Virus record (IMG/VR): IMGVR_UViG_3300008267_000004
Coordinates: 1-64,000 of that record
Length of the DNA: 64,000 nt
Direction: 5' to 3' (one strand)
DNA from: a virus
Under the pieces are notes generated by a model, which ran no database searches, was not told the DNA's origin, and saw only the letters and a list, made by a program, of their open reading frames with translations. This document shows, in pieces, positions 43,026 to 63,090 of the stretch (positions are counted from its first letter, which is position 1; every line of letters begins with the position of its first letter). Made by a program: the position numbers and the translations under genes.

Positions 43026-46000
43026 TTAAGAATATTGTAGATCTATCATTTGTTCTTCTGTCAATTCGATCTTTGGTTTTAGTGCTTTTTTTGCCATTCT
43101 AGCAATATTACAAGAATCTGCTTTGTAGTTAGATTTTACATTTAAAAAGTTAATTGCATTAGTTGTATTTACTGTTTCATTATTTGATGTATCATCAATA
43201 AAATCGTCATACCAACATCCTAATAAATAATACGCTAAACCAAAAGGAGTTGGAGGAATAAAACAGAATGTTAATGCAAGACCCGCAGCTGGTGTTGCGT
43301 AAAATAAACCGTGAGACATGTTAAAACCTATTCTTCTCATGACATCTTCCGCATAAGGTAATCCTTTTAATGCACCTTCTTCATAAATTCTTGGAGGAGG
43401 AGGCTTTAAATCATCAGGACCATATGTTTTTTCTGGTAACATGGGGATCTGATTCATTATAGCAAGAGTGATAGGTCTTGCTATATTATACGGTAGTGAT
43501 GCTAAAAATACGTTAGGATCACCTACTTCACACAAACCTTTTAACATCTGCCATGGTGTTTGTACAGCAAGCCTTAAAATAAGAGGTAGAAGAGATTGCC
43601 ATCCGGCTTCTTGATCTCCAGAATTAGCTGTAGAATTTCCTCCATTTGCTGGAGCGCCACCAAGATCATTATTATTTTTATAGCCATTTCCAGCCATTAA
43701 AGAGTTGTGTCTAGCCTTTAGAGCTGCTTTTGTACTAAAAAATGTTTTCATGCTTTGTAATCTTGCATTGTTAGCCATTATGGCTTGCATTGTAACTACG
43801 CTTATATATTTTCTAATTGGAAAACAGAACTCAAACAAGAATTTAAATGTTATAGATTTTTTAAATTTGCTCTTAGTTACCAATATCTTCTTTGATTTAA
43901 AATATAACTCTAAAGTTTCTCCTTTTGTATCAATCACTCTCCCGCCTGCAACAGGTACTTTGGTTTGAGAGCTGTTTTTTACAACTGTAAATATTTTTTC
44001 AGATGGATCTCTATTTTCAAAAAACTTCAATATATGACCTTGGATATTGTCATAGTTTTCAAATTGTTGTAATTCATATTGTGACTCATATTTTTTTGTT
44101 TCATCTCCATATACAAAAAGTCTTTGCCAAGGAGCTGCATTCTTTTCATTTATTACATTGTTGATTTTTTTTGTTACTCTAGTAGAAATATAAAGTATTT
44201 GCGATTTTATAACTTTTTTAAAAATTTCTTTTTTGGTTCTCGCTGATAGTGTATCGTATCTCTCTCCTGTTTTAATTTCTATTTTTTTAGATTCAGTGGG
44301 ATTTTTCTTATAGAAGTAAGAAACACATTGATCTAAAAATCTTTGATAGTAAATAGGTTCAAAAGATTTCATTTCTATCTCAAAACATCTAGATAAAAAT
44401 TCCAACATTGGATCAGTAGCTACAATACCAATAGGATATTTATCAAATAAGAAAATTCCTTTTAAGAAATAATCATATATATAGACTCTTAAGGTTGCTA
44501 GTAAAAATGCATCAGACATAGCTCTTTCTGTAGGATGCATATTTTCTCTTTTACCTCCAGTTGGATTAGGAGGCTCATTGTTACATGCTTCCTCTCTAAA
44601 ATCGTTAATCACATCTTCGATTATTTCGTCTAAATCCAGGGAATTATTATTAATTCCACAAAATTGATCACTATTTGTTCCTGGTGGCTCTCTTAAAGTT
44701 GCTTGAAACTTTTTAAGATTTGACATATTTTTATAAGGTGTATTTCCAATATTATCAGGCTTCTTATAAAAGAAACTTTGTTTTAAATCATTATATATAT
44801 CAGACATAAATTCACTCTCTATGTCAGAATAATTTATTTCTTTTGGATCTATTTTTCTAATTTGCGTCATATATTTTTCAAAAGCATATTGTTGTATACT
44901 AGAGCTTCCATTATAACCAGCTAGAAGATTATTATTTTTTATATACATCGCAATGTCTGGGCTTATTTCTTCCAAATAAGATGAAGAAATAAATGGATTT
45001 AAATTTTTTGTAATGTTAATGTTGCTTACTTGGGATAAAAATTCACTAGTTCTTGCTCTCTCGGGTGAGATCACAGATCCAAAAGTATATTTTATATCAT
45101 AATTTGGAAAAGCAATATCTGCTGATGCTAATTGCTTTCTAGCGTCTTCTAATTGTGCATCTAAAGTACTAACCTCTGATTGCAAACCACTTATTGCATC
45201 TAAAATTGTTGTCCAAATACCAGAAATAGCTTTAAATGCAAATGATTCTTCAAATAATTTAATATCCCTACTTATACCCTCCGCCAAACTATCTATCCCA
45301 GCAAATAATTCGGTTGTTCCCAGTTTATTTTCAGGAATCAAAAATTCATCTTGTCTTTGAGCATTATCTAAATTTGCTGTAGCTGTTTTTTCTGCCTGTT
45401 TGGCTGCATCTAATCCCTGTTGAGTAGTTTCTGTAATTCCAAATCTCTCGGCAGCACTTTTCGCATTTGGATCACTAGGGTTATTTAAATAATTTTCATA
45501 TGCCGCTCTTTTGTCTATTGCCGCTTTTTTTTCATTTTCAAGAACCACAACTTCTGCTGAGGTTTTTCCTTTTGATTGAATTGTAGATGCGTAAGAGGAA
45601 TCATATGTAGCAACAATTGTATCACCAGAAGTAACAGTATACACAGAATCAGCTCTTTTTGCTACAGCAACACGAGTTCCAGCTGGAGCCGCTCTTGCGG
45701 CTTCTGTTCTAATACTTCTATTTACGGTAGATATCTGTGATACATCTCCTATGCCTACTCTTTGCGCTCCTTGTGTTCTCACAGCACCGGTAATATCAGC
45801 AATAAACACATCTAATAATTCATATATTGCCCATAATCCAGCTAGAAGCGTACTCCACCATCCATCCCAGCCGCCCTTATAACGTTTTTCTAGATCCTGT
45901 AAACCAATCCAAAATCCTGCATCTTCTTCAATAGTGCCAGCGGCCCATTGTTCTAGTAGTGTTATACCTCCGTTTACAAGTTCGGTTGTTATTTGATAAT

Positions 46001-49000
46001 AAATTGTACCCATCTTTTCGGCGGCTATTCTTTTAATTTCATCTTGTATGCCTGTATTTAACTGTGCTTCTGCTAATATTTTAAATTTTTCTCTCTCTAT
46101 GTCTGAATTAACTCTTGTGTTTATAATTATTTCAGATAAATTTTTAGTAATCTCTAGAAAATCCACTCTTTCTAGCGTTTGTGTTAATATTGGAGAAATT
46201 ACCATATTTGAGGTATCTACATTATTTTTATTTTCATTACTTTCAGATTGTTGAGATTGATCATTGGATTTTGGTTTTGGAAATGCATCATCTGACAATT
46301 TCCATTGTTTTACTCCGTTTATTTCTTTTTGTTTCGCCCCAGTTTTCTTTTCATAATCTTCATACTTAATACCACCATTTTCGTCTAATACATAATCTGC
46401 TACTAATATGCCTTTTGCAATTAACATTGCTAAAAGTTTTTCTCTATTTTCTTCTGCAGCTTTAGTATTTGAAGCGTTAGAGCCGCCCAAAGGAGATGTT
46501 GAAGCAGCTGAAAGAGTTTTTATCTCTTCTGGAGTCAGACTTATTTTAGGATTTTCAATCATATTAGCTGACCACTCTTTTAAGTCGCTATTAAACATTT
46601 CATAATATGGCTGTAAAGATCCTTGTAGTGTACCTTGGAACATATCAAGATAGTTAGTATCAACTTTTGCAGGATTTATAATTCCTGGCTTTCCATTTCT
46701 ACACAACATAGGTAATTGTTCCGGGGTTCTTGTCACACCGTCCAATAAATCGGAAAGTCTTTTATTTTTTTCATCCTCTGCATCAGCAATTAAACCCTCA
46801 ATTTGTTCTGGTGTTAGGCCGTTTTGTGCTAGAGCATCTTTTAATGCTTTTGTAGCAGATTCCGTAGAACAAATATTGGTATTTTCTTGAGCTATTTGAT
46901 CTCCTAATTTTTTGCACACGTCTGAAATATTTAAAATCTGTCCTAATTTTTGAAATAAGTATTCCACTTCAGATCTGGTTTTTAGTACTGATGATATATT
47001 TGGATACTTAGCTTCTATTATAGCTCTGACCAAAGATAAAATATCATCTGTTGCTGTACCTTCTGCAATCAATCTACAAATCTCTGTAGGATTCATAAGA
47101 CATGCAATATCTGCAATTAAATTTTTTAAGTCTTCTTTTGCTCTCTCTCTTTCTTGTATGTCTTCATCAGAATTTCCTGTAGGAAGCCCCATTGCTCCAT
47201 ATATGTCCGCAATAGAACTATTAGAAAAAGGATTATCTTGATTATCTAAAATTGCATCTAGTGCTGCAGAAAGACCTAGTTCTTGATCTGAAGTAAAAGG
47301 AGAATTTTTGCCTTGTCCTTGTTTTGAACAATTAGCCATAAGTTTTATAAGCTCTTTTATAGCAATATTGAAAGTTTCAATTATAGCTTGTGATAATGCA
47401 GTAACATACGCATCTCTTAAGGCTTTTGACATATCAGAAGGATTAAATTTTGGAACTTTGTAAGCAGCTAAAGCTTTAATTAACATATCCATGAAAGGAG
47501 TGCAGAAAAATTTAGTTAAAGCTTCTTGTATCCTTTTTTTTAAATCACTATTAAATTGTGAATCTAAATTAGCCAATGCTTGTTGATTATTTGCATCCCT
47601 TATCCAACAAATAATTTGTTGTAATAAAGCTCTCTGAAAGTTTGTCTCTCTTAGAGTTTTTTTGAGAAGATGCAAAGCAGCAGGACCAGGTTTACTCCAA
47701 TCTCCATAACCAGCATTTTTAATTGCACTAAGGGTATCATCACCAAAGGTAGGAGGTTCAGGATCTGTTGTTGGTAAAGTAGCTGCTGGAGTTGATGCTG
47801 CCTGTTTGTCTGCTTCTGCATCAAAATCTATCCATCTTCTTTTGCCGCCTCTAGCATAAGCTAGTTGTTTTTTAAAGTTAGCTTCTGCAACAGGTGCTAC
47901 GGCTTTTATTGAATTATAACCTTTTATAATTCCATCTTCCCAAAGTTTTTTCATGTTATTTTTTGCACAATCAAAATCTCTTTTAGGGATATCTATTTCT
48001 TTTGGCTGTGGAATAACAAATTTTTCTATATACTTATCGATATCTAAATTATTTCTAAGCTCTTTATTCCATTCTCCTTCATATGTTGCTAAATCGGTAA
48101 TAATTTTATATGTACAGTAGTTATATAAAAAGAAGCCGCTTCTATTTGATATAACCCCATAACTTCCAAATTCATTTTCAAATATATACCCATCAATTAC
48201 AAAAGTTTGTGCTATACCATCTCTAACGATATCTATATATGCTATATTAAATTGATCTGTCAATCCAAAAGCTATATTATTTTTTGTAGCATCTGTATAT
48301 AAAACATCATGTTCTATGGTATTTATTTCTAATAATTTTTTAATAGTTATTAAAAAGTTTCCTACATTATCTTTATCATAGAATTTTTTAGCTTCTTTTC
48401 TTAAATCTAATTCTATCAACTCTAAATAATTGTCAGCCGTTAAAGCACCCATGTACTGATCAGCTGCTTTTAAGGCAAAATTAAATTGCTCCTCTCCTCT
48501 ACTAGCTAAAATTTTAGATATATCTTTTATAGTTTCAGCAAAGCTATTATAGTTTAAAAAACTATAAGTTACTATGTATTTAATATCTTCTGGATTTACT
48601 GAGGGATCTAATAGGCCACCAGTAACTCCATCTTTAGCAGCTTGTAGTGGATCTGCTCTATAATCAATTAAATCAGTAGAAGATAGATATTTTTTAGGAA
48701 ACACTACAAGTGTATAAAAATTTGAACAAGGTCTAAGTTTTATAGCCCAATCTCTAGCATATCCGAATAGATAAAATCTATCAGACATTTGTTTTATATA
48801 ATCTTCAGAGTTTTTCTTAGCGTTAGATTTAAAAATTAATCTTAAGCCGGTGAAATAAGCATCTTCAACATATTTTTGTATTTTTTCATCAGTAAGTTCA
48901 AGGCCATCATATTCCGCTTCTACTGAACAGTAATACAATTCACTCCTTTCATCATAATAAACAATAAATGGTTTTTTATCAGACCATCCAATTATATCTG

Positions 49001-49706
49001 TTTCCTGTAAATAACCAATCCTAGGTATTTCTACTGGCTTTAAAAAGCTATATTCTAATCCTTCAATTGGAGTAAGCTGGTTTCTTCTTACAAAAAATTC
49101 AATAGGGCCAGAATCTAACATTAAAGACACTTTACTAAACAATCCAAGAATGCCGATAAAATCTTCTACTATGGTAACTGAATATTCAACCTCGGTTTGC
49201 TCTGCTTCTCTAGGTGGTCCCAAAGTTTCATTAAAGAAAGTTTGAGATATTAAATCTGTTGTTGTGGGTATTGCACCATATAAACCTTCAGATTCTCTTC
49301 TATCAATTACTGTATTTGCAACAGTTTTTGGAAATGAAAATTCTTGTGTTTCTGTAGATGATAAATTATTATCAATCCCCAAATCAGCAGCATAAGGCTC
49401 TTGTGGTTGAGCGTCTGGGAATGTAAGACCTTTTAATTCTTCGTCTGTAAGTTCGTCAAAAATTATCTCTTCTTCTTCCATATTTGATACTGGTGTTTCA
49501 GTATTAAAATCTGGCAACACTGAAAATTTAGTGTCTGAATTAGAAAATCTTTCAACAACTGGCTGTGTTAAATCTTGGTTAACTATACTATCAAAATCAT
49601 AGTATACAATCGATCCAACTGATAAAATATGAGTTGGCTTTTCTTCTCTATATGGTAATCTATTATTTTTATTTAATCTAGCGTATCTATCTGGGCTGTT
49701 AGACAT
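43026..49706 (-). CDS. Giant (2226 aa) mostly helical protein; baseplate hub / tape-measure candidate
   Basis: Lies between the spike-like gene and gp25. Ala-rich coiled-coil centre and several hydrophobic segments. No enzyme motif recognised. Confidence 0.45.
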   Translation of the reverse strand: MSNSPDRYARLNKNNRLPYREEKPTHILSVGSIVYYDFDSIVNQDLTQPVVERFSNSDTKFSVLPDFNTETPVSNMEEEEIIFDELTDEELKGLTFPDAQPQEPYAADLGIDNNLSSTETQEFSFPKTVANTVIDRRESEGLYGAIPTTTDLISQTFFNETLGPPREAEQTEVEYSVTIVEDFIGILGLFSKVSLMLDSGPIEFFVRRNQLTPIEGLEYSFLKPVEIPRIGYLQETDIIGWSDKKPFIVYYDERSELYYCSVEAEYDGLELTDEKIQKYVEDAYFTGLRLIFKSNAKKNSEDYIKQMSDRFYLFGYARDWAIKLRPCSNFYTLVVFPKKYLSSTDLIDYRADPLQAAKDGVTGGLLDPSVNPEDIKYIVTYSFLNYNSFAETIKDISKILASRGEEQFNFALKAADQYMGALTADNYLELIELDLRKEAKKFYDKDNVGNFLITIKKLLEINTIEHDVLYTDATKNNIAFGLTDQFNIAYIDIVRDGIAQTFVIDGYIFENEFGSYGVISNRSGFFLYNYCTYKIITDLATYEGEWNKELRNNLDIDKYIEKFVIPQPKEIDIPKRDFDCAKNNMKKLWEDGIIKGYNSIKAVAPVAEANFKKQLAYARGGKRRWIDFDAEADKQAASTPAATLPTTDPEPPTFGDDTLSAIKNAGYGDWSKPGPAALHLLKKTLRETNFQRALLQQIICWIRDANNQQALANLDSQFNSDLKKRIQEALTKFFCTPFMDMLIKALAAYKVPKFNPSDMSKALRDAYVTALSQAIIETFNIAIKELIKLMANCSKQGQGKNSPFTSDQELGLSAALDAILDNQDNPFSNSSIADIYGAMGLPTGNSDEDIQERERAKEDLKNLIADIACLMNPTEICRLIAEGTATDDILSLVRAIIEAKYPNISSVLKTRSEVEYLFQKLGQILNISDVCKKLGDQIAQENTNICSTESATKALKDALAQNGLTPEQIEGLIADAEDEKNKRLSDLLDGVTRTPEQLPMLCRNGKPGIINPAKVDTNYLDMFQGTLQGSLQPYYEMFNSDLKEWSANMIENPKISLTPEEIKTLSAASTSPLGGSNASNTKAAEENREKLLAMLIAKGILVADYVLDENGGIKYEDYEKKTGAKQKEINGVKQWKLSDDAFPKPKSNDQSQQSESNENKNNVDTSNMVISPILTQTLERVDFLEITKNLSEIIINTRVNSDIEREKFKILAEAQLNTGIQDEIKRIAAEKMGTIYYQITTELVNGGITLLEQWAAGTIEEDAGFWIGLQDLEKRYKGGWDGWWSTLLAGLWAIYELLDVFIADITGAVRTQGAQRVGIGDVSQISTVNRSIRTEAARAAPAGTRVAVAKRADSVYTVTSGDTIVATYDSSYASTIQSKGKTSAEVVVLENEKKAAIDKRAAYENYLNNPSDPNAKSAAERFGITETTQQGLDAAKQAEKTATANLDNAQRQDEFLIPENKLGTTELFAGIDSLAEGISRDIKLFEESFAFKAISGIWTTILDAISGLQSEVSTLDAQLEDARKQLASADIAFPNYDIKYTFGSVISPERARTSEFLSQVSNINITKNLNPFISSSYLEEISPDIAMYIKNNNLLAGYNGSSSIQQYAFEKYMTQIRKIDPKEINYSDIESEFMSDIYNDLKQSFFYKKPDNIGNTPYKNMSNLKKFQATLREPPGTNSDQFCGINNNSLDLDEIIEDVINDFREEACNNEPPNPTGGKRENMHPTERAMSDAFLLATLRVYIYDYFLKGIFLFDKYPIGIVATDPMLEFLSRCFEIEMKSFEPIYYQRFLDQCVSYFYKKNPTESKKIEIKTGERYDTLSARTKKEIFKKVIKSQILYISTRVTKKINNVINEKNAAPWQRLFVYGDETKKYESQYELQQFENYDNIQGHILKFFENRDPSEKIFTVVKNSSQTKVPVAGGRVIDTKGETLELYFKSKKILVTKSKFKKSITFKFLFEFCFPIRKYISVVTMQAIMANNARLQSMKTFFSTKAALKARHNSLMAGNGYKNNNDLGGAPANGGNSTANSGDQEAGWQSLLPLILRLAVQTPWQMLKGLCEVGDPNVFLASLPYNIARPITLAIMNQIPMLPEKTYGPDDLKPPPPRIYEEGALKGLPYAEDVMRRIGFNMSHGLFYATPAAGLALTFCFIPPTPFGLAYYLLGCWYDDFIDDTSNNETVNTTNAINFLNVKSNYKADSCNIARMAKKALKPKIELTEEQMIDLQYS

Positions 49707-54141: not shown

Positions 54142-55086
54142 TTATACTCCTCTTATATTTGGATAATTTTTTTTAAACCAGTCACAAGTCTTCTTTATCC
54201 CTACTTCTAAACTTGTATACGTTTCTTCTTTCCATCCTAAATCTAGAAATTTTTTATTAGAAGTTGGTTTACGAATTTGTCCTTTTGGTTTTTTATTATC
54301 ATACGTTATATCACCATTATATTCTAATTCTTTAGAAATTAAAGTAATAACATCTTTTAATTTGTATTCTTTAGTAGATCCAATATTTACTGGATCTCCG
54401 GTATAATTATTATCTAATAAGAATTTTATCGCTTTAGCAATATCTTCAGCATAAGTAAACTCACGATAAACTTCACCATCACCCCAAACTTCAAACGATG
54501 GTTTATTATTAATTTTTGCCTCCCAGATTTTACGGATTAAAGATGGGATAACATGACCATTCTCAAGATCAAAATTATCATGTTCTCCATACATGTTGTT
54601 TGGAATAACTGATATATATTCTGTACTGTATTGTTGATTTGCTGCTTTTAATTGAACATCAACCATACGTTTTGCATAAGCATATCCAAAATTTGAATCA
54701 TGTGGAGGGCCATTATGAAGCTGATCTTCAGTTAGTGGATAATTTACATATTTTTCGTCTGGGTATATACACGTTGATAGACAACAAATTAACTTTGGGA
54801 CATCTGTAAATATACAAGATTGAATAATGTTGTTATTTATCTCAGAGTTTGTGTTATAAAAATCAGAAATATAGCGAGTATTTGCTTTTACTCCTCCAAC
54901 CTTTCCTGCTAAATGTATTACTGCTTTTATTTTTGATTCGGAGAATTCATTAAAATTATCAAAATATCGATGAGTATCATCATAGTTTTCTAAGTTTAAT
55001 TCTTTATGTGTTGGATAGAGAGCATCCGGTAATATTTTTTTAAATGCACTTCCAAGTAATCCAGAGCCGCCAGTTATAATAATCAT
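54142..55086 (-). CDS. fcl: GDP-L-fucose synthase-like epimerase/reductase (extended SDR)
   Basis: ITGGSGLLG, HLAGKVGG, CLSTCIYP, YAYAKR (YxxxK), PNNMYG, HVIPSLIRK and WGDGEVYREFTY. Confidence 0.9.
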   Translation of the reverse strand: MIIITGGSGLLGSAFKKILPDALYPTHKELNLENYDDTHRYFDNFNEFSESKIKAVIHLAGKVGGVKANTRYISDFYNTNSEINNNIIQSCIFTDVPKLICCLSTCIYPDEKYVNYPLTEDQLHNGPPHDSNFGYAYAKRMVDVQLKAANQQYSTEYISVIPNNMYGEHDNFDLENGHVIPSLIRKIWEAKINNKPSFEVWGDGEVYREFTYAEDIAKAIKFLLDNNYTGDPVNIGSTKEYKLKDVITLISKELEYNGDITYDNKKPKGQIRKPTSNKKFLDLGWKEETYTSLEVGIKKTCDWFKKNYPNIRGV

Positions 55087-55095
55087 ATAATTCCT

Positions 55096-55509
55096 CTAAT
55101 ATAATTCAGGAAAATCGGTACATACCCCTAATATATTTTTAGGTAGGTTTTTGTTGTGTCCAAATTCTACCGTAATCCCATCTTGTATATAAACACCAGG
55201 AAAACACCATAAATAATTTTTACTAGTTAAAGTAATTTTATCATTTTCATGCCAAAACCAATTTAACTCAGTATTTTTCAGTCTGATACAAGCATCAAAA
55301 TTTTTAGCATGTAGCCACATTTTATTGCTAAAGAAAAAATTTGTTACTTCGTATGTTGGTAAATCGTGTCCTAAAAACCATTTATTATTTACATACCAAA
55401 CATCTACTTCAACTTCAAATTTTTTTATTACTTCTAAGATCCTATCTGGATTGTTTTCCAGATTTCTTTCTATGCCATTTAAATTTCCTCTATGTGATAT
55501 AATTTTCAT
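55096..55509 (-). CDS. PI-PLC/GDPD-like phosphodiesterase-fold protein
   Basis: ISHRGN, ENNP, VEVDVWY, LGHD, WLHAKN and GVCTDF. Confidence 0.7.
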   Translation of the reverse strand: MKIISHRGNLNGIERNLENNPDRILEVIKKFEVEVDVWYVNNKWFLGHDLPTYEVTNFFFSNKMWLHAKNFDACIRLKNTELNWFWHENDKITLTSKNYLWCFPGVYIQDGITVEFGHNKNLPKNILGVCTDFPELY

Positions 55510-56275
55510 CAGAAATTCTTTCTTTGTATTGTTCTTCTGTTAAATAACATGATAAATATTCTGGTTGATTAATCCATTTTCCAATATTTATAATACCTGC
55601 AGTGCTTTTTGTATCTATAACCTTATAGTTGTTTAATATATATTTCCACGAATCTCTTGTCAGAGTTATGTAGTCTTCTAGGGTTAAATCCTTGTAGATA
55701 TATTTTTTTATCAGATTAAAAGATAATATATGTTCAGTTCCAAAAAAAGAATTAGAAAAGTCTGTTTTCTCTAAGTCATCATATACATCACAAATTTTTT
55801 TAATATCTTCTTTCATGCCTAAATAAAACCAATCAGAAATTCTAAACCAAGGTTTTGGTTCTGATGTGGAGTCTGGGTTTATGGTCATCATATTACTGAC
55901 CACTACTTTACTATCAAAGATTTTATATTCTCCAAATGCTTTTTCAAAATTAAAATAACTAAAAATATTTTTAGTTACCAAACAATCATTTCTTATCTTG
56001 AATATAAGATCATTTGAACTTTCTTCTAGTGCTTTTTTAAGCCCATATAACTGTCTTTTTAGATTGCAATGTTGTTGTACAGGCAATAAACCATTAAAAG
56101 GCCCAGGTCCGGGATCTTTACAAAATAATATTTTATCATATCCGCTTAAATTATTATTTTGTCCTTCCCAAGTTGATATTATTAATTCTCCATCAAACCA
56201 TTCCCTTATTTGGTTTATGGATCTCTGCACCATATTATTTTGTATTTCGCCTTGAATTATTACTGTTTTTTCCAT
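55490..56275 (-). CDS. WavE-like LPS/glycan synthesis protein
   Basis: Probable start MEKTVIIQGEI; ELIISTW, DPGP, NLKRQLYGLKKAL, KIRND and FRISDWFYLG. Confidence 0.7.
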   Translation of the reverse strand: MEKTVIIQGEIQNNMVQRSINQIREWFDGELIISTWEGQNNNLSGYDKILFCKDPGPGPFNGLLPVQQHCNLKRQLYGLKKALEESSNDLIFKIRNDCLVTKNIFSYFNFEKAFGEYKIFDSKVVVSNMMTINPDSTSEPKPWFRISDWFYLGMKEDIKKICDVYDDLEKTDFSNSFFGTEHILSFNLIKKYIYKDLTLEDYITLTRDSWKYILNNYKVIDTKSTAGIINIGKWINQPEYLSCYLTEEQYKERISDENYIT

Positions 56276-56868
56276 ACAAAAGAAATTCCATGATCTGTTA
56301 AACATTCTTTCTGAACTACCCAATCAAAATTTAAATTTTGGACAAACAGTTTTGGTCCTGGATGGTTGTTCGTATCGTGAAATCCAACAATTCCATATTC
56401 GGATAATAAGTTTGTAAATTCCCACTCTGCATATACTTGATTTATACTATGCCAACCATCTATAAAAATAAAATCTATTTCCTCAACTCCTTTAGATTTT
56501 ATGAATTCTAATATTTCAGAATAATTTTCAGATTTTGTTTGAAGAGTATAAACATTATTCTCTTCGTCATTCAAAAATGAACAATCTCTGATATCTACTC
56601 CAATATATACACAGTCTTTGTTTTTGTTTTTTACAAGTGTATATGAACTACCAAATTCACTTCTAGCAATTCCTATCTCTAAAATAGCTCTACATCTATC
56701 TTTAACTGTTAAAAAATATTTTTTTAAGCTTTCATGATTGCATGGAGTAAATTCACCATTTTGTCCATCATAATATACATCAGTTGTTTCACTTAGAGGA
56801 AGATCTGAATCATCTCTTGAATCATTAAATCTTATGTCTCTTAATAAATCAGATTGCCATTTTTTCAT
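56260..56868 (-). CDS. Class I SAM-dependent methyltransferase (Methyltransf_24-like)
   Basis: ILEIGI, YIGVDI, IDFIFIDGWHS and GIVGFHDT. Probable ATG at 56868 overlaps the RLP stop (TAATG). Confidence 0.8.
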   Translation of the reverse strand: MKKWQSDLLRDIRFNDSRDDSDLPLSETTDVYYDGQNGEFTPCNHESLKKYFLTVKDRCRAILEIGIARSEFGSSYTLVKNKNKDCVYIGVDIRDCSFLNDEENNVYTLQTKSENYSEILEFIKSKGVEEIDFIFIDGWHSINQVYAEWEFTNLLSEYGIVGFHDTNNHPGPKLFVQNLNFDWVVQKECLTDHGISFVWKKQ

Positions 56869-58061
56869 TATTTTACCAATCCCCATTTTTCTATAGCTAT
56901 ATTATATTCAGATTTATAATTTTTATCAATTGACTGTCTCATTGCCATAGCACCAGAAATTGTACCATTAGGATGACCATGGACAGCACCACCCGCATTT
57001 GCTAGATAGTCAATACCAACTTTTGAAGTTACATACTCCACTAACCCTGGGTGCATACCACAACTTAATGCTGGGAGTGTGTTTCCATTTCTTAAAGTTG
57101 AGATACATTCTAAAATTTCTTCTGGATCGTCATTACTATATCCACCAATCATACCAGTTTGGATGGTATCAACGCCCATTAAAGTAGCTAAATAACACAT
57201 AACCTTCCAAGAAATACTGTATTTATGATCTTTCTCTGTAAAAACTTTTGCGCCGCTACTCTGATAGTGTAAAAATAAAGGTAGATTTAATTTTCTTATG
57301 CTATTATAAGAACCTAAGCCGCTAAACACGTTAATATGTACACCATTTCCTCCTAATTCATATACTCTTTTTACTCTATCTACAAGAATATGTGGATCAC
57401 AATTTATGGTGTGACAGAAAACAACTTTACGGTTTTGGCTTGCTAGATAATTTGAAACAATCTCTACTCTTTTTTCAAGAGGAGCCACCACTGGGTTGCT
57501 CATGATTTCATCTTCTTTGATAAAGTCGGCACCACCATCAACCATTTGTTTTACCATTTCTAGTAAAATATATGGAGTTACTCCAATTTTTGGCTTAACA
57601 ATACTTCCGAACAGGGGTTTATTATATTGTCCTGTAAAATTCCTAAATCCACTGATTCCAAATTTTGGACCTAAAAAATTGTCTGTAACAGATTTAGGTA
57701 ATTTTAAATCAATTAATCTACATCTTTCAACTATATCTATATCAACATGACCACCCATTAATTGGCATATCATGTGAGAAATTCCATCAGATTGCCAGTC
57801 ATTGTTTGCAACAGGAAATGCAATATTTACTTCACCTTCAGTTTTTTCGCTCAATTCTGATTCTGAATGTAAAATAAGGCAAGAATGATTTTGAAACAAT
57901 TCTTCAGTTTCCCATTCGTTTCTAACATTTGGATTGCCAACGCTTTGTCCGATTGCTAAATTCCAAGCAGCATCCTTTAAATTAGTTTTTGACTTAATTT
58001 TATATTTTGCTATATAATATTTCTCGTAATCCAACTCACTAGTAAAAATATTAAATTTCAT
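56868..58061 (-). CDS. RuBisCO-like protein (form IV RLP)
   Basis: LAIGQSVG, GPKFGISGFR, PLFGSIVKPKIG, GGADFIKEDE (carbamylation/Mg motif), LHYQSSG, GVDTIQTG, PALSCGMHPG and AGGAVHGHPNG. Confidence 0.92.
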   Translation of the reverse strand: MKFNIFTSELDYEKYYIAKYKIKSKTNLKDAAWNLAIGQSVGNPNVRNEWETEELFQNHSCLILHSESELSEKTEGEVNIAFPVANNDWQSDGISHMICQLMGGHVDIDIVERCRLIDLKLPKSVTDNFLGPKFGISGFRNFTGQYNKPLFGSIVKPKIGVTPYILLEMVKQMVDGGADFIKEDEIMSNPVVAPLEKRVEIVSNYLASQNRKVVFCHTINCDPHILVDRVKRVYELGGNGVHINVFSGLGSYNSIRKLNLPLFLHYQSSGAKVFTEKDHKYSISWKVMCYLATLMGVDTIQTGMIGGYSNDDPEEILECISTLRNGNTLPALSCGMHPGLVEYVTSKVGIDYLANAGGAVHGHPNGTISGAMAMRQSIDKNYKSEYNIAIEKWGLVK

Positions 58062-58068
58062 ATTTTCC

Positions 58069-58959
58069 TCATAATTGTAAAATATTTTTTACAATTTCAT
58101 AATATTTTTCGAAGCATTTTTCGGGAGTGTGAAACTTTGTGTAAGATTCATACGCAGCTTCTCCATAGTCAATATATCTCTTATTTTCCATTGTGTAAAG
58201 TATTTTTTCTTTTAAATCCTGAAAATCATCTCTTATTTCTATATAACTATCGAATAGTATACCATCTTTTGATGTAGATTTTAGTTTTAATTTTGGCATT
58301 ATTATAGCGCATTTTGTACTTGCCAATTCCCAAGTTCTTTTAGAGTCATAAGAATTACCAAAATAATTTAGTCCTATTTTTGAAGAATTTATAACTTCTG
58401 TATATTTTTTAGTAATTTTATCAGCTACACCTACATGATCATCAACATCAATATGCCAGTTCATATTTTTTAACTCATTCACTGATAGTTGCTTAATGTG
58501 CTCAACAAACGGTTTCCTTCTTCCAGAAGTCATTCTTCCTATAAAAGATAAATCGATCTCTTTTAATTGAAATCTTTGATCATATTTTGTAGCAACAGGA
58601 AAATGAAATCCATATACAGGGCTTTTCCATGGATTTTTTGAATTATCTGTCAACTCTCTATGCATTATTAAGTCTGGTTTTCTATTGCTCCAAATTTGTA
58701 TATCTTCAAAGTCGGTATCATCGTGTTGAATAAGATTAGAGAATCTATAATATGTATCTATTATTTTATTAGTTATTGGTATAGTATTCCACTCATGAAG
58801 ATATAAAACAATATTTTGATAATCATGTACTGGCTTAAAATCTGCTAGGTTTGTTTCATATACATAATCACACTTATAGCCTAATTCTTCAAATTTTTTG
58901 AAATAAAAATTTGCATTATCAACCCAAGAATAAGAAAAAAATAAAAAATCTTTAGTCAT
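58069..58959 (-). CDS. GT-B glycosyltransferase-like protein (CgeB / Glyco_trans_1_2 type)
   Basis: IDLSFIGRMTSGRR, YTEVINSSKIGLN and RTWELASTKCAII. Confidence 0.7.
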   Translation of the reverse strand: MTKDFLFFSYSWVDNANFYFKKFEELGYKCDYVYETNLADFKPVHDYQNIVLYLHEWNTIPITNKIIDTYYRFSNLIQHDDTDFEDIQIWSNRKPDLIMHRELTDNSKNPWKSPVYGFHFPVATKYDQRFQLKEIDLSFIGRMTSGRRKPFVEHIKQLSVNELKNMNWHIDVDDHVGVADKITKKYTEVINSSKIGLNYFGNSYDSKRTWELASTKCAIIMPKLKLKSTSKDGILFDSYIEIRDDFQDLKEKILYTMENKRYIDYGEAAYESYTKFHTPEKCFEKYYEIVKNILQL

Positions 58960-59280
58960 TTATACCTCATATTTATCATTTGGAACAGAAGCTGTTTTTA
59001 CAACAACTATTTTGCAATCTTCTAAAAATTCAGGATCTGCTATTTCTAGCGGTTCAAGAATAAAAATATCACCTGGGTTGATTTCTTTTCCGCATATTAC
59101 CATCTTACCAGAAATTAAGCAGTTAATTTCTGTAGCAATTTTATGATAATGTTTAGGCCACTTTTCACCTTTTTTATGAATAAGTATTCCAACTTCAAAG
59201 AGGTCAGTTTTATAAACGCTCGGATTGAAATTTCCTACCATCCAACCTCTCCACATATTATTTATATTATCTATTTTCAT
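58960..59280 (-). CDS. Cupin-fold protein (possible sugar isomerase/epimerase)
   Basis: RGWMVGNF, KHYHKIATEINCLISGKM (HxH...E metal motif), and GDIFILEP. Confidence 0.75.
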   Translation of the reverse strand: MKIDNINNMWRGWMVGNFNPSVYKTDLFEVGILIHKKGEKWPKHYHKIATEINCLISGKMVICGKEINPGDIFILEPLEIADPEFLEDCKIVVVKTASVPNDKYEV

Positions 59281-60017
59281 CTCTTAAGCCTATATTCTAA
59301 ATCATATCTTAAATTATTATCTATTGTTAAAGGTATTTTTAGATCATTATTTTTTAAAGTATATTCAAGCATGGTTTCTGCAGAAAAATTATTATATTTT
59401 TTAAAATTTTCAATACTCAAAGCATAGATATTTTTCATAATATCAAAAGCTTCAGGTTTTATATATACGATATAGTCTCTTATATTGTAATAATTTTCTA
59501 CTCCATAAGAATCTCCAACGACAATTTTTTCATCCACAAAATTAAATGGCTTTAATAAATCAATATCAAATCGACTTCTGATAAGAAAATCATATTTTTC
59601 ATAGTTTTTTATAGATTTAAAACCCTCAGACACAGCATACCATTGCGAAGTTAATCTATTTACTGCCTCTTCTGGTACATTTCCACCTTGATATGTTTTG
59701 TATTGACTATTTTCCGTATTCCAAGTTCCATATTTGGTAGGATGTATTTCTATATTTTTTTTATTGTATTCAAAAAAACCCCTAGATTCATTTATTACTA
59801 TCACCTTAGTCCAAGGAGAATAAACAGATAATAATTTTTTCATAGACTCTTCAGAGTGATAAAAATCAGTAAGATGATCCGTATTATTCCAGGTGGAGAT
59901 GTATATATCACAATCATATAAATCTAATAAATTTTTCTTTAAATTAAGAAATGTATCCATATATGTTCTTAAATGACCGCTTAGTACTAATGCTATTTTT
60001 TTATTTTCTGTTTTCAT
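59277..60017 (-). CDS. Putative glycosyltransferase-like protein (WavE-related N-terminal pattern)
   Basis: KIALVLSGHLRT, DIYISTW, QWYAV and YDFLIRSRFD. Confidence 0.55.
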   Translation of the reverse strand: MKTENKKIALVLSGHLRTYMDTFLNLKKNLLDLYDCDIYISTWNNTDHLTDFYHSEESMKKLLSVYSPWTKVIVINESRGFFEYNKKNIEIHPTKYGTWNTENSQYKTYQGGNVPEEAVNRLTSQWYAVSEGFKSIKNYEKYDFLIRSRFDIDLLKPFNFVDEKIVVGDSYGVENYYNIRDYIVYIKPEAFDIMKNIYALSIENFKKYNNFSAETMLEYTLKNNDLKIPLTIDNNLRYDLEYRLKR

Positions 60018-60729
60018 AAATTTTTATGTCCTCCGGCGTTCCTAAAGAATAAAATTCACCCTTATTGAGAGAGTGATAACCTATGTTCATACCTTTTTTT
60101 ATTAAATAATTATATGTTTTAGATACATAAAATTCATTATTAACTCTATCATTGTTTTTTAACAATTCCACCGCAGAGTTTACAAAATAGCTTCCTTTTC
60201 TCCAATAATGAATACCGCATAAAGCCAAATTAGAAATAGCAGTTTTTTCATCTAACAGTAGACCTAAATTATTTTCATCTGTTTTTATAAAACTATAAGG
60301 ACTCTTTTCTCCCACTATTATATTATCATAAGGATAAGTAGCAACACAGCCATCGAGATTTTTTCTTCGACATGAATTTAAAAATAAGTTACTATCCCAG
60401 ATAGTTCTTTGATCACAATTTGTAGTGATAAGTTCTGTATCATTATCTATAAATTCTTTTGCTAATAATATAGAGCTTACTGTACCATCAGTTAAATAAT
60501 CAATTTCAATAATTATAGAGTCGGGCTTAGTATTATATAATACATCTTTTAGCTTATCAGAAAAGTTACTTTTTCTAATTACAAATATATATTGTCCTTC
60601 TATTCCTAGACTATCTATAGCGTGTTGAACTATTGTTTTTTCCTCTATTTTAATTAATGGTTTTGGATCTAAATATCCCGCATCAAAAAATCTCTTCCCA
60701 AGACCAACCATCGGTATAACTATATTCAT
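60001..60729 (-). CDS. Sugar-phosphate nucleotidyltransferase (GT-A/NTP-transferase fold)
   Basis: IVIPMVGLGKRF...PKPLI, TDGTVSS, NCDQ, YSFIK, EKTAIS-like LDEKTAISNLALCGIHYW, and NEFYVSKTYN...LGTPED. Confidence 0.85.
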   Translation of the reverse strand: MNIVIPMVGLGKRFFDAGYLDPKPLIKIEEKTIVQHAIDSLGIEGQYIFVIRKSNFSDKLKDVLYNTKPDSIIIEIDYLTDGTVSSILLAKEFIDNDTELITTNCDQRTIWDSNLFLNSCRRKNLDGCVATYPYDNIIVGEKSPYSFIKTDENNLGLLLDEKTAISNLALCGIHYWRKGSYFVNSAVELLKNNDRVNNEFYVSKTYNYLIKKGMNIGYHSLNKGEFYSLGTPEDIKIYENRK

Positions 60730-61334
60730 ATGTATTCCTTCATAAGGTCTATATTAACCTGTTTAGCATTATCGACTTTTATTATAAAAGCGCCGGCACC
60801 AGAAGCTGCTTCAATTCCTTTTGGAGAATCTTCCACTATTATAGTTTCGTTTGGAGAGACATTAAAAAAATTAATACAATTTATATAACCTTCTGGGTTT
60901 GGTTTTGGAGAATTAACGTCTTGATTTGTGATCAGTTTATCTAACGAGGATAAAACACCTGCTTTTTTCAGGATCAATTCGGCAGTTTTTCTTATGCTAT
61001 TAGTATAGCAAGCAATTTTAATATTTTTATCTTTTAAGTATTTTAATAGTTCTACTTTAGAAGAATCATACGCGCAAAGATCATTTATTAATTTTATAGT
61101 ATTTTCTTGTTTTAGTGATTCTATGGTATCAAATAAATTTTCTGTGACCATCCCTTTATCTTTTAATTTTTTTAATTTTATTTTTGTCGGTAAACCATTA
61201 TATTCTTTATAGTGTTCTTCCAGGGATAGCTCATAATTACAAACATTCTTAAGTGCTAAATTAAAAGCTATTCTATGCCAATCACATGCGTCTACTAAAA
61301 CGCCGTCCATATCAAAGATAACTAATTTAATCAC
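60726..61334 (-). CDS. HAD-superfamily phosphatase (beta-PGM-like)
   Basis: Motif I FDMDGVLVD, motif II CYTNS, KPNPEGY, motif IV IVEDSPKG. Confidence 0.88.
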   Translation of the reverse strand: MIKLVIFDMDGVLVDACDWHRIAFNLALKNVCNYELSLEEHYKEYNGLPTKIKLKKLKDKGMVTENLFDTIESLKQENTIKLINDLCAYDSSKVELLKYLKDKNIKIACYTNSIRKTAELILKKAGVLSSLDKLITNQDVNSPKPNPEGYINCINFFNVSPNETIIVEDSPKGIEAASGAGAFIIKVDNAKQVNIDLMKEYI

Positions 61335-61686
61335 CTTTTTCTATCCTTATGCTATCCTCATCAAAATGTTGAGTAGAAAATTCAAATAGTTCTGTATCTT
61401 GTAAAGCAACCATTTGATGTCTTAGGCCCGTTTTTACATGAAAACTATCGCCTTTTTCTAAAATAATAGTATTTGCATTTAAAATATTGTCATCATCCCC
61501 ATAAAAAACTTTTAATTTTCCACTTTGAATATAAAAAACTTCATCTTTTACTTTATGATAATGCCAAGAGCATTTTTTTCCTTTTATAAAATAAAGTAAC
61601 TTACCGCAATATTTGTTATTATTTGTAATCCATTTTTCAAATCCCCATCCTTTGGGAACAAAAATTTGCTCAGAAGAAGTCAACAT
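61327..61686 (-). CDS. Cupin-fold protein (sugar isomerase-like)
   Basis: VPKGWGFEKWI, YCGKLL, CSWHYHKVKDEVFYIQSG, GLRHQM and EFSTQHFDEDSIR. Probable start at ATG 61686. Confidence 0.8.
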   Translation of the reverse strand: MLTSSEQIFVPKGWGFEKWITNNNKYCGKLLYFIKGKKCSWHYHKVKDEVFYIQSGKLKVFYGDDDNILNANTIILEKGDSFHVKTGLRHQMVALQDTELFEFSTQHFDEDSIRIEKGD

Positions 61687-61984
61687 CTTTAAACCCCTTA
61701 TCATCTACGTAGAAATCGGCGGCTGGCTTACCTAGCTTTAGGTAGCTAAATTTCAAACCCCAACTTTTCAATTGTTCAAGAGTAAAATAAAAAAATCTTT
61801 CATTAGCCCTATCAACATCTCCATTATATCTATCCATTCCTCTAGCTGTATACATCACTATCCTATGACCCTCATCGTAAAGTTTGTTAATTTTTTCAAT
61901 CCTATCTACAAAGGGTTTTGCGTCTTCGTACTTTCCATTTGTTAAAGTACATATTGTTCCATCTATATCAAAAACGTAAGTCAT
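61670..61984 (-). CDS. Small HAD-family (capless) phosphatase
   Basis: YVFDIDGTIC, YTARG, LGKP and YVDDK. Probable start at ATG 61984. Confidence 0.8.
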   Translation of the reverse strand: MTYVFDIDGTICTLTNGKYEDAKPFVDRIEKINKLYDEGHRIVMYTARGMDRYNGDVDRANERFFYFTLEQLKSWGLKFSYLKLGKPAADFYVDDKGFKDVDFF

Positions 61985-62741
61985 TTTTAACATCCTCAAA
62001 GTTTATAATTGCAGTCCCAGATTTACTAACAACACTGGAGGCGCATAGATTGGCAAATATTATAGCCTCTGATATAGAATTAGTTAATAAATATTGCACA
62101 CAAAGAGCTGCTATAAAAGTATCCCCAGCTCCACTAACATCAAATACGTCTACCTTTTTACTAGGATATATATTCCCATTATATAAAGCGCCTTTTTCTC
62201 CCATGGTAACTATTAATCTATTTTTTTGAGGAAGGGATTTAGATCTATTGTATTCATCTTGATTTATTTTTACAAATACATTTTCACGATCAAAAATTTG
62301 TAAATCCGGCTTTTTTGAATCAACGAAAATGGGACCACTAAAGTTGAATAAGGATCTTATATTGTTTTCATTTATAGATCCTTTATTATAGTCAGATACT
62401 ATAATTGCATGATATTTATCTAATTTTTCTTTAGGAATTTTAATTTCTTCAGATTGTTTTTCATAGTCTACTCTTAATAGGTGCTGCTTTGACTTGCTAT
62501 CAATATATCTTTCTTTAATCGTATCCATGTTAGAAACAATTAAATGCGCCTGTACATTTAACGCTAACAAGTTTTTATAAACGTTTCCAGACATACCTTC
62601 TGTTTTTATCTCTCTCTCAAAACAAAACACTGGGACAGGTGCTTCCGGGCTTAGTCTTTCACATTTTCCATACTTAAATACATCTTGACAATAATCACCT
62701 ATTACCAATATTTTTAATAATGTTAGTTGTTGAATATCCAT
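61968..62741 (-). CDS. rfaE1: D-glycero-manno-heptose-7-phosphate kinase (HldE/RfaE kinase domain, PfkB fold)
   Basis: ILVIGD...RLSPEAPVPV, GMSGNV, VSDYNKG, VDSK, VTMGEKGA and DVSGAGDTF. Confidence 0.88.
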   Translation of the reverse strand: MDIQQLTLLKILVIGDYCQDVFKYGKCERLSPEAPVPVFCFEREIKTEGMSGNVYKNLLALNVQAHLIVSNMDTIKERYIDSKSKQHLLRVDYEKQSEEIKIPKEKLDKYHAIIVSDYNKGSINENNIRSLFNFSGPIFVDSKKPDLQIFDRENVFVKINQDEYNRSKSLPQKNRLIVTMGEKGALYNGNIYPSKKVDVFDVSGAGDTFIAALCVQYLLTNSISEAIIFANLCASSVVSKSGTAIINFEDVKNDLRF

Positions 62742-63090
62742 TTATATATTTAAAAATTACAACTTCAGCTAGGTCATTTCCTACAACCTCTTCTTTAGTG
62801 TAATCTCCACCTTTCACTATAATATGTGGTTTTATTTTTTGTAAAAGTTTATACGGTGTATCTTCTTCAAAAATTATAACCTGGTCTACAAATCTAATAC
62901 ATTCTAAAATATATTTTCTATCTTTTTCTTTATTTATGGGTCTAGTCTCACCCTTTAATCTTTTAATACTATCATCGCTATTTAGGCCGACTATTAGATA
63001 ATCTCCTAAGCTTTTAGCGTATTCTAATAATCTTATATGCCCAGTATGTATTATATCAAAACATCCATTTGTAAAGATAATTTTACTCAT
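62695..63090 (-). CDS. rfaE2: D-glycero-manno-heptose-1-phosphate adenylyltransferase (HldE/RfaE domain II)
   Basis: FTNGCFDIIHTGH, VGLNSDDSIKRLKGETRP, KGGDY and YSTTNII. Confidence 0.92.
   Translation of the reverse strand: MSKIIFTNGCFDIIHTGHIRLLEYAKSLGDYLIVGLNSDDSIKRLKGETRPINKEKDRKYILECIRFVDQVIIFEEDTPYKLLQKIKPHIIVKGGDYTKEEVVGNDLAEVVIFKYINGYSTTNIIKNIGNR

Follow-up and report, generated by a model that had tools for sequence, protein, structure and literature searches.

A RuBisCO-like protein of the form IV-like phage clade in a conserved glycan-locus cassette of a large myophage: partners, interchange with HAD phosphatases and possible chemistry

Within a 64,000-nucleotide stretch of DNA from a freshwater phage (positions 1 to 64,000 of the IMG/VR record IMGVR_UViG_3300008267_000004, hereafter the window), a gene on the minus strand (56868-58061) codes for a RuBisCO-like protein (RLP) of 397 amino acids (aa). 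This RLP is a real and intact member of a known but functionally unexplained clade, and it is carried in a conserved cassette of glycan loci in which related phages swap it for HAD phosphatases. An earlier note on this DNA, made from the sequence alone, had proposed that the protein was recruited to build an unusual activated sugar for a viral glycan. The survey of gene neighbourhoods reported here supports the tie to glycan biosynthesis, and the interchange with HAD phosphatases adds a new and directly testable clue to RLP function.

The RLP gene, its genome and its clade

The open reading frame (ORF) begins with ATG and contains no internal stops. RuBisCO_large (PF00016) is matched with an E-value of 1.9e-33 and 116 bits (cut-off 30), and RuBisCO_large_N (PF02788) also scores above its cut-off, so that both the N-terminal domain and the beta/alpha barrel are present. 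The AlphaFold model, with a predicted local distance difference test (pLDDT) score of 86 and a predicted template-modelling (pTM) score of 0.86, aligns over its full length with RLP and RuBisCO structures, 2oem_A giving a Z-score of 40.8 and a root-mean-square deviation of 2.7 over 366 aligned residues. The structure prediction thus agrees with the ORF, the Pfam matches and the positions of four motifs (KPK, 156-158; DFIKEDE, 179-185; SCG, 333-335; GGAVHGHP, 357-364) in bearing out the complete large-subunit fold that had been read from the sequence. The nearest solved relatives are ~25-28% identical, and every score against the NCBIfam functional models falls far under its cut-off.

The record is a 187,450-bp virus of the 187-kb myophage type (CheckV 100%), and PHROGs confirm the head protease, portal, TerL and baseplate wedge genes in the window, in line with the phage genes named previously. 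The possibility of a host/phage chimera, which would have undermined the proposal, is ruled out: the identical RLP locus recurs in four assemblies from different samples, an independent 33-kb contig matches positions 46868-64970 at 100% and spans from the island into large phage genes, contig depth is ~5x over island and flank alike (in runs from two other studies), and GC content varies between 27 and 36% across the window without a step. The gene is therefore confirmed as real and intact, in a glycan island of a 187-kb myophage.

Homologues of the RLP were found at 53 viral loci (55-76% identity) and, by an alignment-based scan of GTDB genomes, at ~48 cellular loci (~34-58% identity), the next RLPs being at most ~32% identical; a scan of GTDB genomes with the single RLP sequence gave no match. 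The cellular members come from SAR11, Patescibacteria including Beckwithbacteria, DPANN, Legionella, Nonomuraea, Turneriella and others, with the reservation that some of the contigs from metagenome-assembled genomes counted as cellular (e.g. L064, L095, L096) may be phage contamination. In a quick tree with a midpoint root, viral and cellular sequences form one clade (48 rows, SH-aLRT 100) apart from form I, OiaX-type, MtnW-like and Firmicute RLPs, and the Beckwithbacteria sequence L069 (49% identity) falls inside it. Database relatives amount to 2,711 clusters (90% identity) at E<=0.001, the best 120 of which are all at least 72% identical. Deposited phage records (n=50,697) held no match, and hence provide no isolate or host, and the plasmid matches listed are all distant (~30% identity or less) and mostly OiaX-type. 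As separate observations, the outgroup Firmicute/Chloroflexi RLPs (L107-L136) have recurring neighbours of their own (clusters k0, k1 and k5), and one 724-aa protein (P0123) consists of a clade RLP fused to an unrecognised C-terminal region.

On this tree placement, the RLP is almost certainly a member of the form IV-like clade of phages and Beckwithbacteria described by Jaffe et al. 2019 (PMC6389311), who reported ~80 divergent form IV-related sequences on phage contigs grouping with Beckwithbacteria. The likeness, a divergent RLP on large myophage-type genomes grouping with a Beckwithbacteria sequence, was set by the tree and not by the sequences of that study. A phage RLP as such is consequently not new, since the clade was already in that report. 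The statement that no viral RLP pathway of this kind had been characterised has to be qualified to that extent, and stands as regards function, which the consulted part of the paper leaves as 'possible functionality unclear'. That same part describes no cassette, and the clade extends here to SAR11, DPANN, Legionella, Nonomuraea and a giant virus.

A cassette of glycan loci and the interchange of the RLP with HAD phosphatases

The most constant neighbour of the RLP is a sugar-phosphate nucleotidyltransferase-like protein (242 aa; 60001-60729, on the minus strand like all the island genes described below), which lies ~2 kb upstream of the RLP in the window. It matches PF00483; its nearest structure is 4EVW, an uncharacterised protein of V. 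cholerae (profile E-value 2e-37, template-modelling score 0.83), followed by RmlA, GlmU and LicC, and it retains the RmlA-type GxGxR, K23, D106 and EK, which places it closer to sugar-phosphate transferases than to KdsB. This nucleotidyltransferase (hereafter the transferase) was found near the RLP, nearly always within 400 bp, at 46 of the 53 viral and 43 of the 48 cellular clade loci. Two smaller proteins complete the set of core partners. A cupin of 106 aa (58960-59280), whose profile matches cupin structures, occurs at 36/53 viral and 12 cellular clade loci. A miniature GDPD-like phosphodiesterase of 137 aa (55096-55509; profile against GDPD structures, E 9e-9), found at 36/53 viral and 26/48 cellular clade loci, shows the GDPD fold in trimmed form and retains the two catalytic histidines as well as the ExD metal motif, residues H6, R7, E34, D36, H48 and D49 being invariant. 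Transferase, phosphodiesterase and cupin alike are absent from the outgroup RLP loci (0/31). When near-copies are collapsed into 29 clusters at 90% identity, the transferase remains in 26, the cupin in 22, the phosphodiesterase in 21 and the methyltransferase discussed below in 17. Moreover, RLP, transferase and cupin are fused in one chain in P0121 and P0122, one of which is on a giant-virus contig.

The immediate flanks of the RLP, which the earlier note had taken as its telling neighbours, proved to be weak partners. The upstream GT-B-like glycosyltransferase (58069-58959), which stops at 58069 and thus leaves the 7-nt gap noted before, is island cargo, present at 4/53 loci; its identity is marginal, PF13524 being matched at 25.3 bits with the cut-off at 25. 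The downstream gene (56260-56868; 202 aa), coupled to the RLP through the equally correct TAATG overlap at 56866-56870, is a probable S-adenosylmethionine (SAM) methyltransferase whose match is under the cut-off (PF13578, E 5e-4); it is optional, occurring at ~30/53 viral and 1/48 cellular loci. The PfkB and cytidylyltransferase genes of the island recur at 0/53 viral loci and the EcbF-like gene at 3/53, and the flanking glycosyltransferase, PfkB, cytidylyltransferase and second cupin (0-6/53) were rejected as core partners.

Two further island genes are candidate transferases for the last step of the pathway. The DUF7796-like protein (246 aa; 59277-60017) was assigned by an Atlas feature score of 0.98, the DUF7796 label standing on 12-31% of cluster members, and its family is present at 20/53 viral loci; one Atlas cluster of DUF7796-like proteins also bears a PRK domain. 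The WavE-family protein (55490-56275; PF07507, E 7e-22) represents a family that recurs in bacterial cassettes lacking the RLP.

The RLP is thus a member of a mobile cassette in glycan loci, composed of RLP, transferase and mini-phosphodiesterase, often with the small cupin and one or more candidate transferases, of which no description was found in the literature searched. SAR11, DPANN, the candidate phyla radiation (CPR), Legionella, an actinomycete and a giant virus all carry it, so that it is not virus-specific and recruitment for a viral glycan describes only part of its range, although the link to glycans itself holds. The cellular copies lie among lipopolysaccharide (LPS) and capsule genes, namely GT9, heptose genes, WavE, ABC exporters and O-antigen ligase; on the complete chromosome of Pelagibacter Uisw_094, the cassette is among heptose and GT9 genes. 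Many cellular loci have two transferase paralogues.

Cyanophages and bacterial plasmids also carry transferase/phosphodiesterase cassettes that lack an RLP; these usually contain a HAD phosphatase together with proteins of the WavE or DUF7796-like families. In a sample of 80 viral loci picked by the transferase alone, both RLP and any HAD were present at 1 locus, the RLP only at 12, a HAD only at 62 and neither at 5, and the cupin accompanies either the RLP or HAD-III (32/5/4/39, counted in the same way). Three types of locus stand out: a HAD-IA-transferase fusion mostly without cupin (HAD-IA being fused to the transferase at 50 of the 80 loci), a transferase-HAD-III fusion with cupin, and a transferase with RLP, mostly with cupin. 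The RLP pairs with transferases of both the cupin branch and the cupin-less branch of the transferase tree, that of the window being on the cupin/RLP branch.

The exchange can be followed between related phages. Loci L213 and L155 have their flanking genes in common, with HAD-transferase, cupin and phosphodiesterase 81, 80 and 73% identical; between cupin and phosphodiesterase, L213 carries the RLP and methyltransferase, and L155 a transferase-HAD-III fusion. The same kind of swap distinguishes L156 from L160, and L168 and L201 have eight genes in common with the island of the window together with a transferase-HAD-III fusion and no RLP. Among the sampled loci RLP and HAD phosphatases nearly exclude each other, and in related phages either of the two can occupy the same position. 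Around the HAD-III-type cassettes, GT61-family genes cluster at 13 loci (L153, L154, L156, L160, L199 and others), a family that includes pentosyltransferases.

Active site and proposed chemistry

Residues were mapped on C. necator CbbL and are given in RuBisCO numbering, with those of the RLP in brackets. K175 (K156), K177 (K158), S379 (S333), G381, G403 and G404 are kept, and the Mg/carbamate site K201/D203/E204 (K182, D184, E185) is both kept and invariant. Across the clade, Gly stands in place of E60, Gln (Q267) in place of H294, Tyr (Y308) in place of K334, and either Gly or His in place of N123; at the carboxylation positions E60, N123, H294, R295, H327 and K334 the RLP itself has G38, G104/H105, Q267, S268, Q301 and Y308, and its His at 265 aligns with H292, not with H294. 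As judged from these alignments, the enolising metal site and the first phosphate pocket are retained, and the residues for CO2 addition and cleavage are gone. The second phosphate site divides the clade, most cellular members having Lys at 295 and His at 327, and the viral subtype of the RLP, represented by 109 of the closest database matches, having Ser and Gln. With the second phosphate site lost, that subtype should bind a monophosphate.

Taken with its neighbourhood, the RLP very probably belongs to a glycan-donor pathway, and there is a high probability that it makes the phosphorylated substrate of the transferase, the same job as is done by a HAD elsewhere. Because both must feed the same small transferase, the product of the HAD would name that of the RLP. 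Annotated partners of the same transferase family elsewhere appear to act on pentulose or ketose phosphates: an RpiB fusion with a class II aldolase in phage Bellamy, a DHBP-synthase fusion in S-SKS1, and, on an E. coli plasmid, a PRK-family kinase, a HAD, a class II aldolase and an annotated PLC/GDPD gene. A ketose-1-phosphate is proposed since a phosphatase and an RLP could both supply such a product: a phosphatase is known to convert ribulose-1,5-bisphosphate (RuBP) into ribulose-1-phosphate (PMC9700705), and 1,3-isomerisation by an RLP can interconvert a ribulose-1-phosphate and xylulose/ribulose-5-phosphates (PMC6302742).

We therefore favour, with a probability of about 0.45, the reading that the RLP is an isomerase that does not carboxylate, and that the ketose-1-phosphate it supplies is then activated with a nucleotide. 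The RLP would be a Mg2+/carbamate enediolate isomerase without net CO2 chemistry, which takes a pentulose-5-phosphate (or hexulose-6-phosphate) of the host and moves its carbonyl to yield the ketose-1-phosphate, in the manner of the 1,3-isomerase of R. rubrum run in reverse on a sulfur-free sugar; the HAD would arrive at this ketose-1-phosphate either by trimming a ketose bisphosphate or as a mutase, and the cupin would set the epimer. The R. rubrum RLP, which acts on methylthioribulose-1-phosphate, is the proposed working analogue by function, not by tree placement. It shares non-carboxylating chemistry on a monophosphate ketose and a cupin partner, and differs in its context of methylthioadenosine (MTA) salvage, absent here, the biosynthetic direction being our suggestion for the phage enzyme. 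The transferase would next form a nucleoside diphosphate (NDP)-ketose linked via the primary phosphate, much as CDP-6-fructose is made from fructose-6-phosphate by nucleotidylation through the primary phosphate (PMC10918830). The GDPD-like enzyme might then cleave the NDP-ketose via a 1,2-cyclic phosphate, leaving the phosphate on the anomeric C2. Enzymes of the GDPD fold work via five-membered cyclic phosphates. A WavE- or DUF7796-type protein would finally add the ketofuranose (or a ketose or polyol phosphate) to the glycan, and the two transferase paralogues of many cellular loci would fit a second activation. The expectation of an unusual activated sugar thus fares best in its ketose/polyol form.

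Part of this scheme may have a counterpart in the BcbE/F/G module of Pasteurella, where a fructose side chain requires both BcbE and BcbG (PMC13552107) and a third gene, bcbF, names the EcbF-BcbF phosphatase family. The EcbF/BcbF-family HAD, WavE and 4EVW-like transferases recur in the cassette family, a likeness drawn from families rather than from an alignment of BcbE and BcbG; in contrast, no RLP is known in the Pasteurella module and its donor chemistry is not described in that paper. Searches of the literature on KfoD/BcbE donors, WavE/WavG and xylulofuranose biosynthesis returned nothing useful, and blastn against E. coli genomes gave no match for K4/O97-type relatives. A KdsB-like activator of a free ketose was rejected as the main model because the fold of the transferase is nearer RmlA/GlmU, and because an RLP cannot easily replace a phosphatase that yields a free sugar.

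Several observations weigh against the ketose-1-phosphate isomerase. In most cellular members the second phosphate site is still basic (K295, H327, S379), a feature that would be superfluous in a monophosphate isomerase, and an invariant second base is not obvious, position 105 being H or Q. Legionella copies adjoin a LicD phosphotransferase with no phosphodiesterase nearby, an arrangement that fits phosphodiester transfer rather than a glycoside. In the transferase tree, the fused HAD-IA and fused HAD-III transferases are each essentially one clade; since transferase types are largely clades, the exclusivity reflects a handful of switches and not 80, and its Fisher p-values (1e-9 and 8e-13) overstate the evidence because independent events are few. 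The window is itself an exception, with a HAD-IA (beta-phosphoglucomutase-like) phosphatase (60726-61334; PF13419, TIGR02009 below cut-off) of the family that usually stands in the place of the RLP abutting the transferase beside the RLP, and a short EcbF-like HAD-III in a separate block; L213, L043/L044 and L036 are further exceptions.

The alternative that survives best, unlikely on present evidence, is that the RLP removes phosphate or water via an enediolate (beta-elimination or enolase chemistry), giving a deoxy-diketone or enediol for the cupin, so that the activated unit would be a short deoxy-ketose or acid and not an intact ketose. This would parallel MtnW/MtnX as against the HAD enolase-phosphatase MtnC, with a cupin following, and methionine salvage indeed offers a precedent for displacement of a HAD by an RLP. 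The association of the cupin with RLP or HAD-III, the second phosphate site kept by many clade members, and the one transferase fused to DHBP synthase, an enzyme whose path runs through a deoxy-diketone, could all be accommodated. However, MtnW still needs a HAD (MtnX) and most RLP cassettes are without one, the cupin tracks the transferase subtype rather than the RLP, cupin-less RLP cassettes exist, and the MtnW base K98 is H or Q in the RLP clade.

Synthesis of a branched or carboxylated sugar by carboxylation or transcarboxylation, with the chemistry of apiose or hamamelose reversed, appears less likely again. OiaX-type RLPs do such chemistry, and the phage protein retains K175, K177, the KxDE site and S379, a likeness to RuBisCO that is unusual among RLPs. 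OiaX and the related catabolic sugar-acid RLPs, ~30% identical, resemble the phage protein in acting on sugar phosphates, but they largely keep H294, R295 (with H327) and K334, and their genes share catabolic operons with four-carbon acid sugar kinases. In the RLP these residues are replaced, the OiaX model scores 141 bits against a cut-off of 700, the clade's neighbours include neither a four-carbon acid sugar kinase nor a dehydrogenase, and a phosphatase could not stand in for an enzyme that rearranges carbon-carbon bonds. The branched or carboxylated options of the earlier note are accordingly disfavoured, as the phage protein has other residues at the positions of E60, H294 and K334.

The acceptor in the phage is most likely a virion or host-surface glycan. 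Phages also use nucleotide sugars on DNA, and it is conceivable, at rather low odds, that the cassette makes a donor for phage DNA modification instead, a proposal on end use and not on the chemistry of the RLP. Some cassettes lie among replication genes, which would suit this role, whereas the cellular copies lie among LPS and capsule genes and a base-modifying gene recurs nowhere among the neighbours.

A methionine-salvage enzyme, either MtnW or the methylthioribulose-1-phosphate (MTRu-1-P) isomerase, that recycles MTA and SAM by-products and stands in a glycan island incidentally, is highly improbable. MtnW, the 2,3-diketo-5-methylthiopentyl-1-phosphate (DK-MTP-1-P) enolase of form IV-YkrW, is the closest structure (Z 40.8, 28% identity) and gives the best PDB and NCBIfam scores, it shares the Gly at E60 and the first phosphate site, and a methyltransferase adjoins the RLP. 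Nevertheless, the phage protein has KEDE in place of KDDE and a H/Q at the K98 base (H105 aligning to K98), keeps K177 and S379, and scores far under the MtnW cut-offs (164 against 409 and 138 against 514 bits). The MtnW-like sequence falls outside the clade, RLPs of the clade are fused to the transferase, and genes of the MtnA and MtnB families are absent from the genome and recur at none of ~100 clade loci, where methionine-salvage neighbours had been named as part of a finding that would refute the proposal. A true RuBP carboxylase boosting host carbon fixation can practically be dismissed, for although homologues are automatically named 'RuBisCO large chain' and K175, K177, K201, D203 and E204 are kept, E60, H294, R295, H327 and K334 are replaced, scores for the carboxylating forms I-III (159/497, 158/438 and 97/489 bits against cut-off) are far too low, and the genome has no PRK.

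The RLP functions named in the cited literature are all salvage or catabolic. It is a doubtful but attractive extension of the isomerase proposal that an entire branch of the RuBisCO superfamily, disseminated by phages and present in SAR11, CPR, DPANN and giant viruses, is anabolic, isomerising ketose phosphates of central metabolism to ketose-1-phosphates. These would enter an undescribed nucleotide/cyclic-phosphate route that leads to ketofuranosyl donors, and the RLPs would be interchangeable with HAD phosphatases. If true, a biosynthetic RLP for glycan assembly would extend the chemistry of the superfamily and account for an abundant clade that has been without an explanation since 2019, and the activation of ketoses such as fructose or xylulose for bacterial and viral glycans would find an explanation in the cassette family as well. 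The interchange of RLP and HAD may likewise reveal which donor provides the ketose side chains of capsules and LPS. With their automatic annotation as RuBisCO large chain, these homologues can be miscounted as viral carbon-fixation genes.

Other genes of the transferase family, the island and the genome

Some relatives of the transferase are of interest in their own right. In Synechococcus phage S-SKS1 (L056:6001-7428), the transferase and a full DHBP synthase (RibB) domain form one fusion protein encoded in a glycan island, and the fusion gene adjoins an EcbF-like HAD and a transaldolase-like gene. The transferase-RpiB fusion of phage Bellamy (L144:4835-5992) is annotated 'phosphatase' and belongs to a locus with a double transferase and a class II aldolase. 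One operon of the E. coli plasmid (L145:6022-13224) combines the transferase, GtrA, GT2, a PLC/GDPD-like gene, a PRK-family kinase, a HAD and a class II aldolase, and is a candidate O-antigen-modifying module in a tractable host.

In the island itself, a separate block (61327-63090) holds the second cupin, the short EcbF-like HAD-III, the PfkB kinase and the cytidylyltransferase-like protein; its PfkB and cytidylyltransferase-like genes resemble a split HldE, with a short HAD and cupin. GmhA/SIS, PRK, MtnA and class II aldolase were not found in the genome. An NDP-sugar epimerase/reductase (54142-55086; PF01370, E 8e-45) at the distal end of the island and a GDP-mannose-dehydratase-like gene (G000 67619-68617) bracket the island and may form a GDP-fucose pair. 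The island varies among strains: compared with G000 beyond 64970, strain L233 (positions 1-1635) differs at the left island end, where it has small ORFs and a 242-aa GT2 in place of a 653-aa glycosyltransferase, and is otherwise 100% identical. Elsewhere, very large ORFs of 3250 and 2226 aa stand among the baseplate genes (window 29615-39367 and 43026-49706), and the genome carries 26 tRNA genes (G000 74030-74736 and 106556-110963), 24 of them in one cluster within a region of higher GC (39-40%) and small ORFs.

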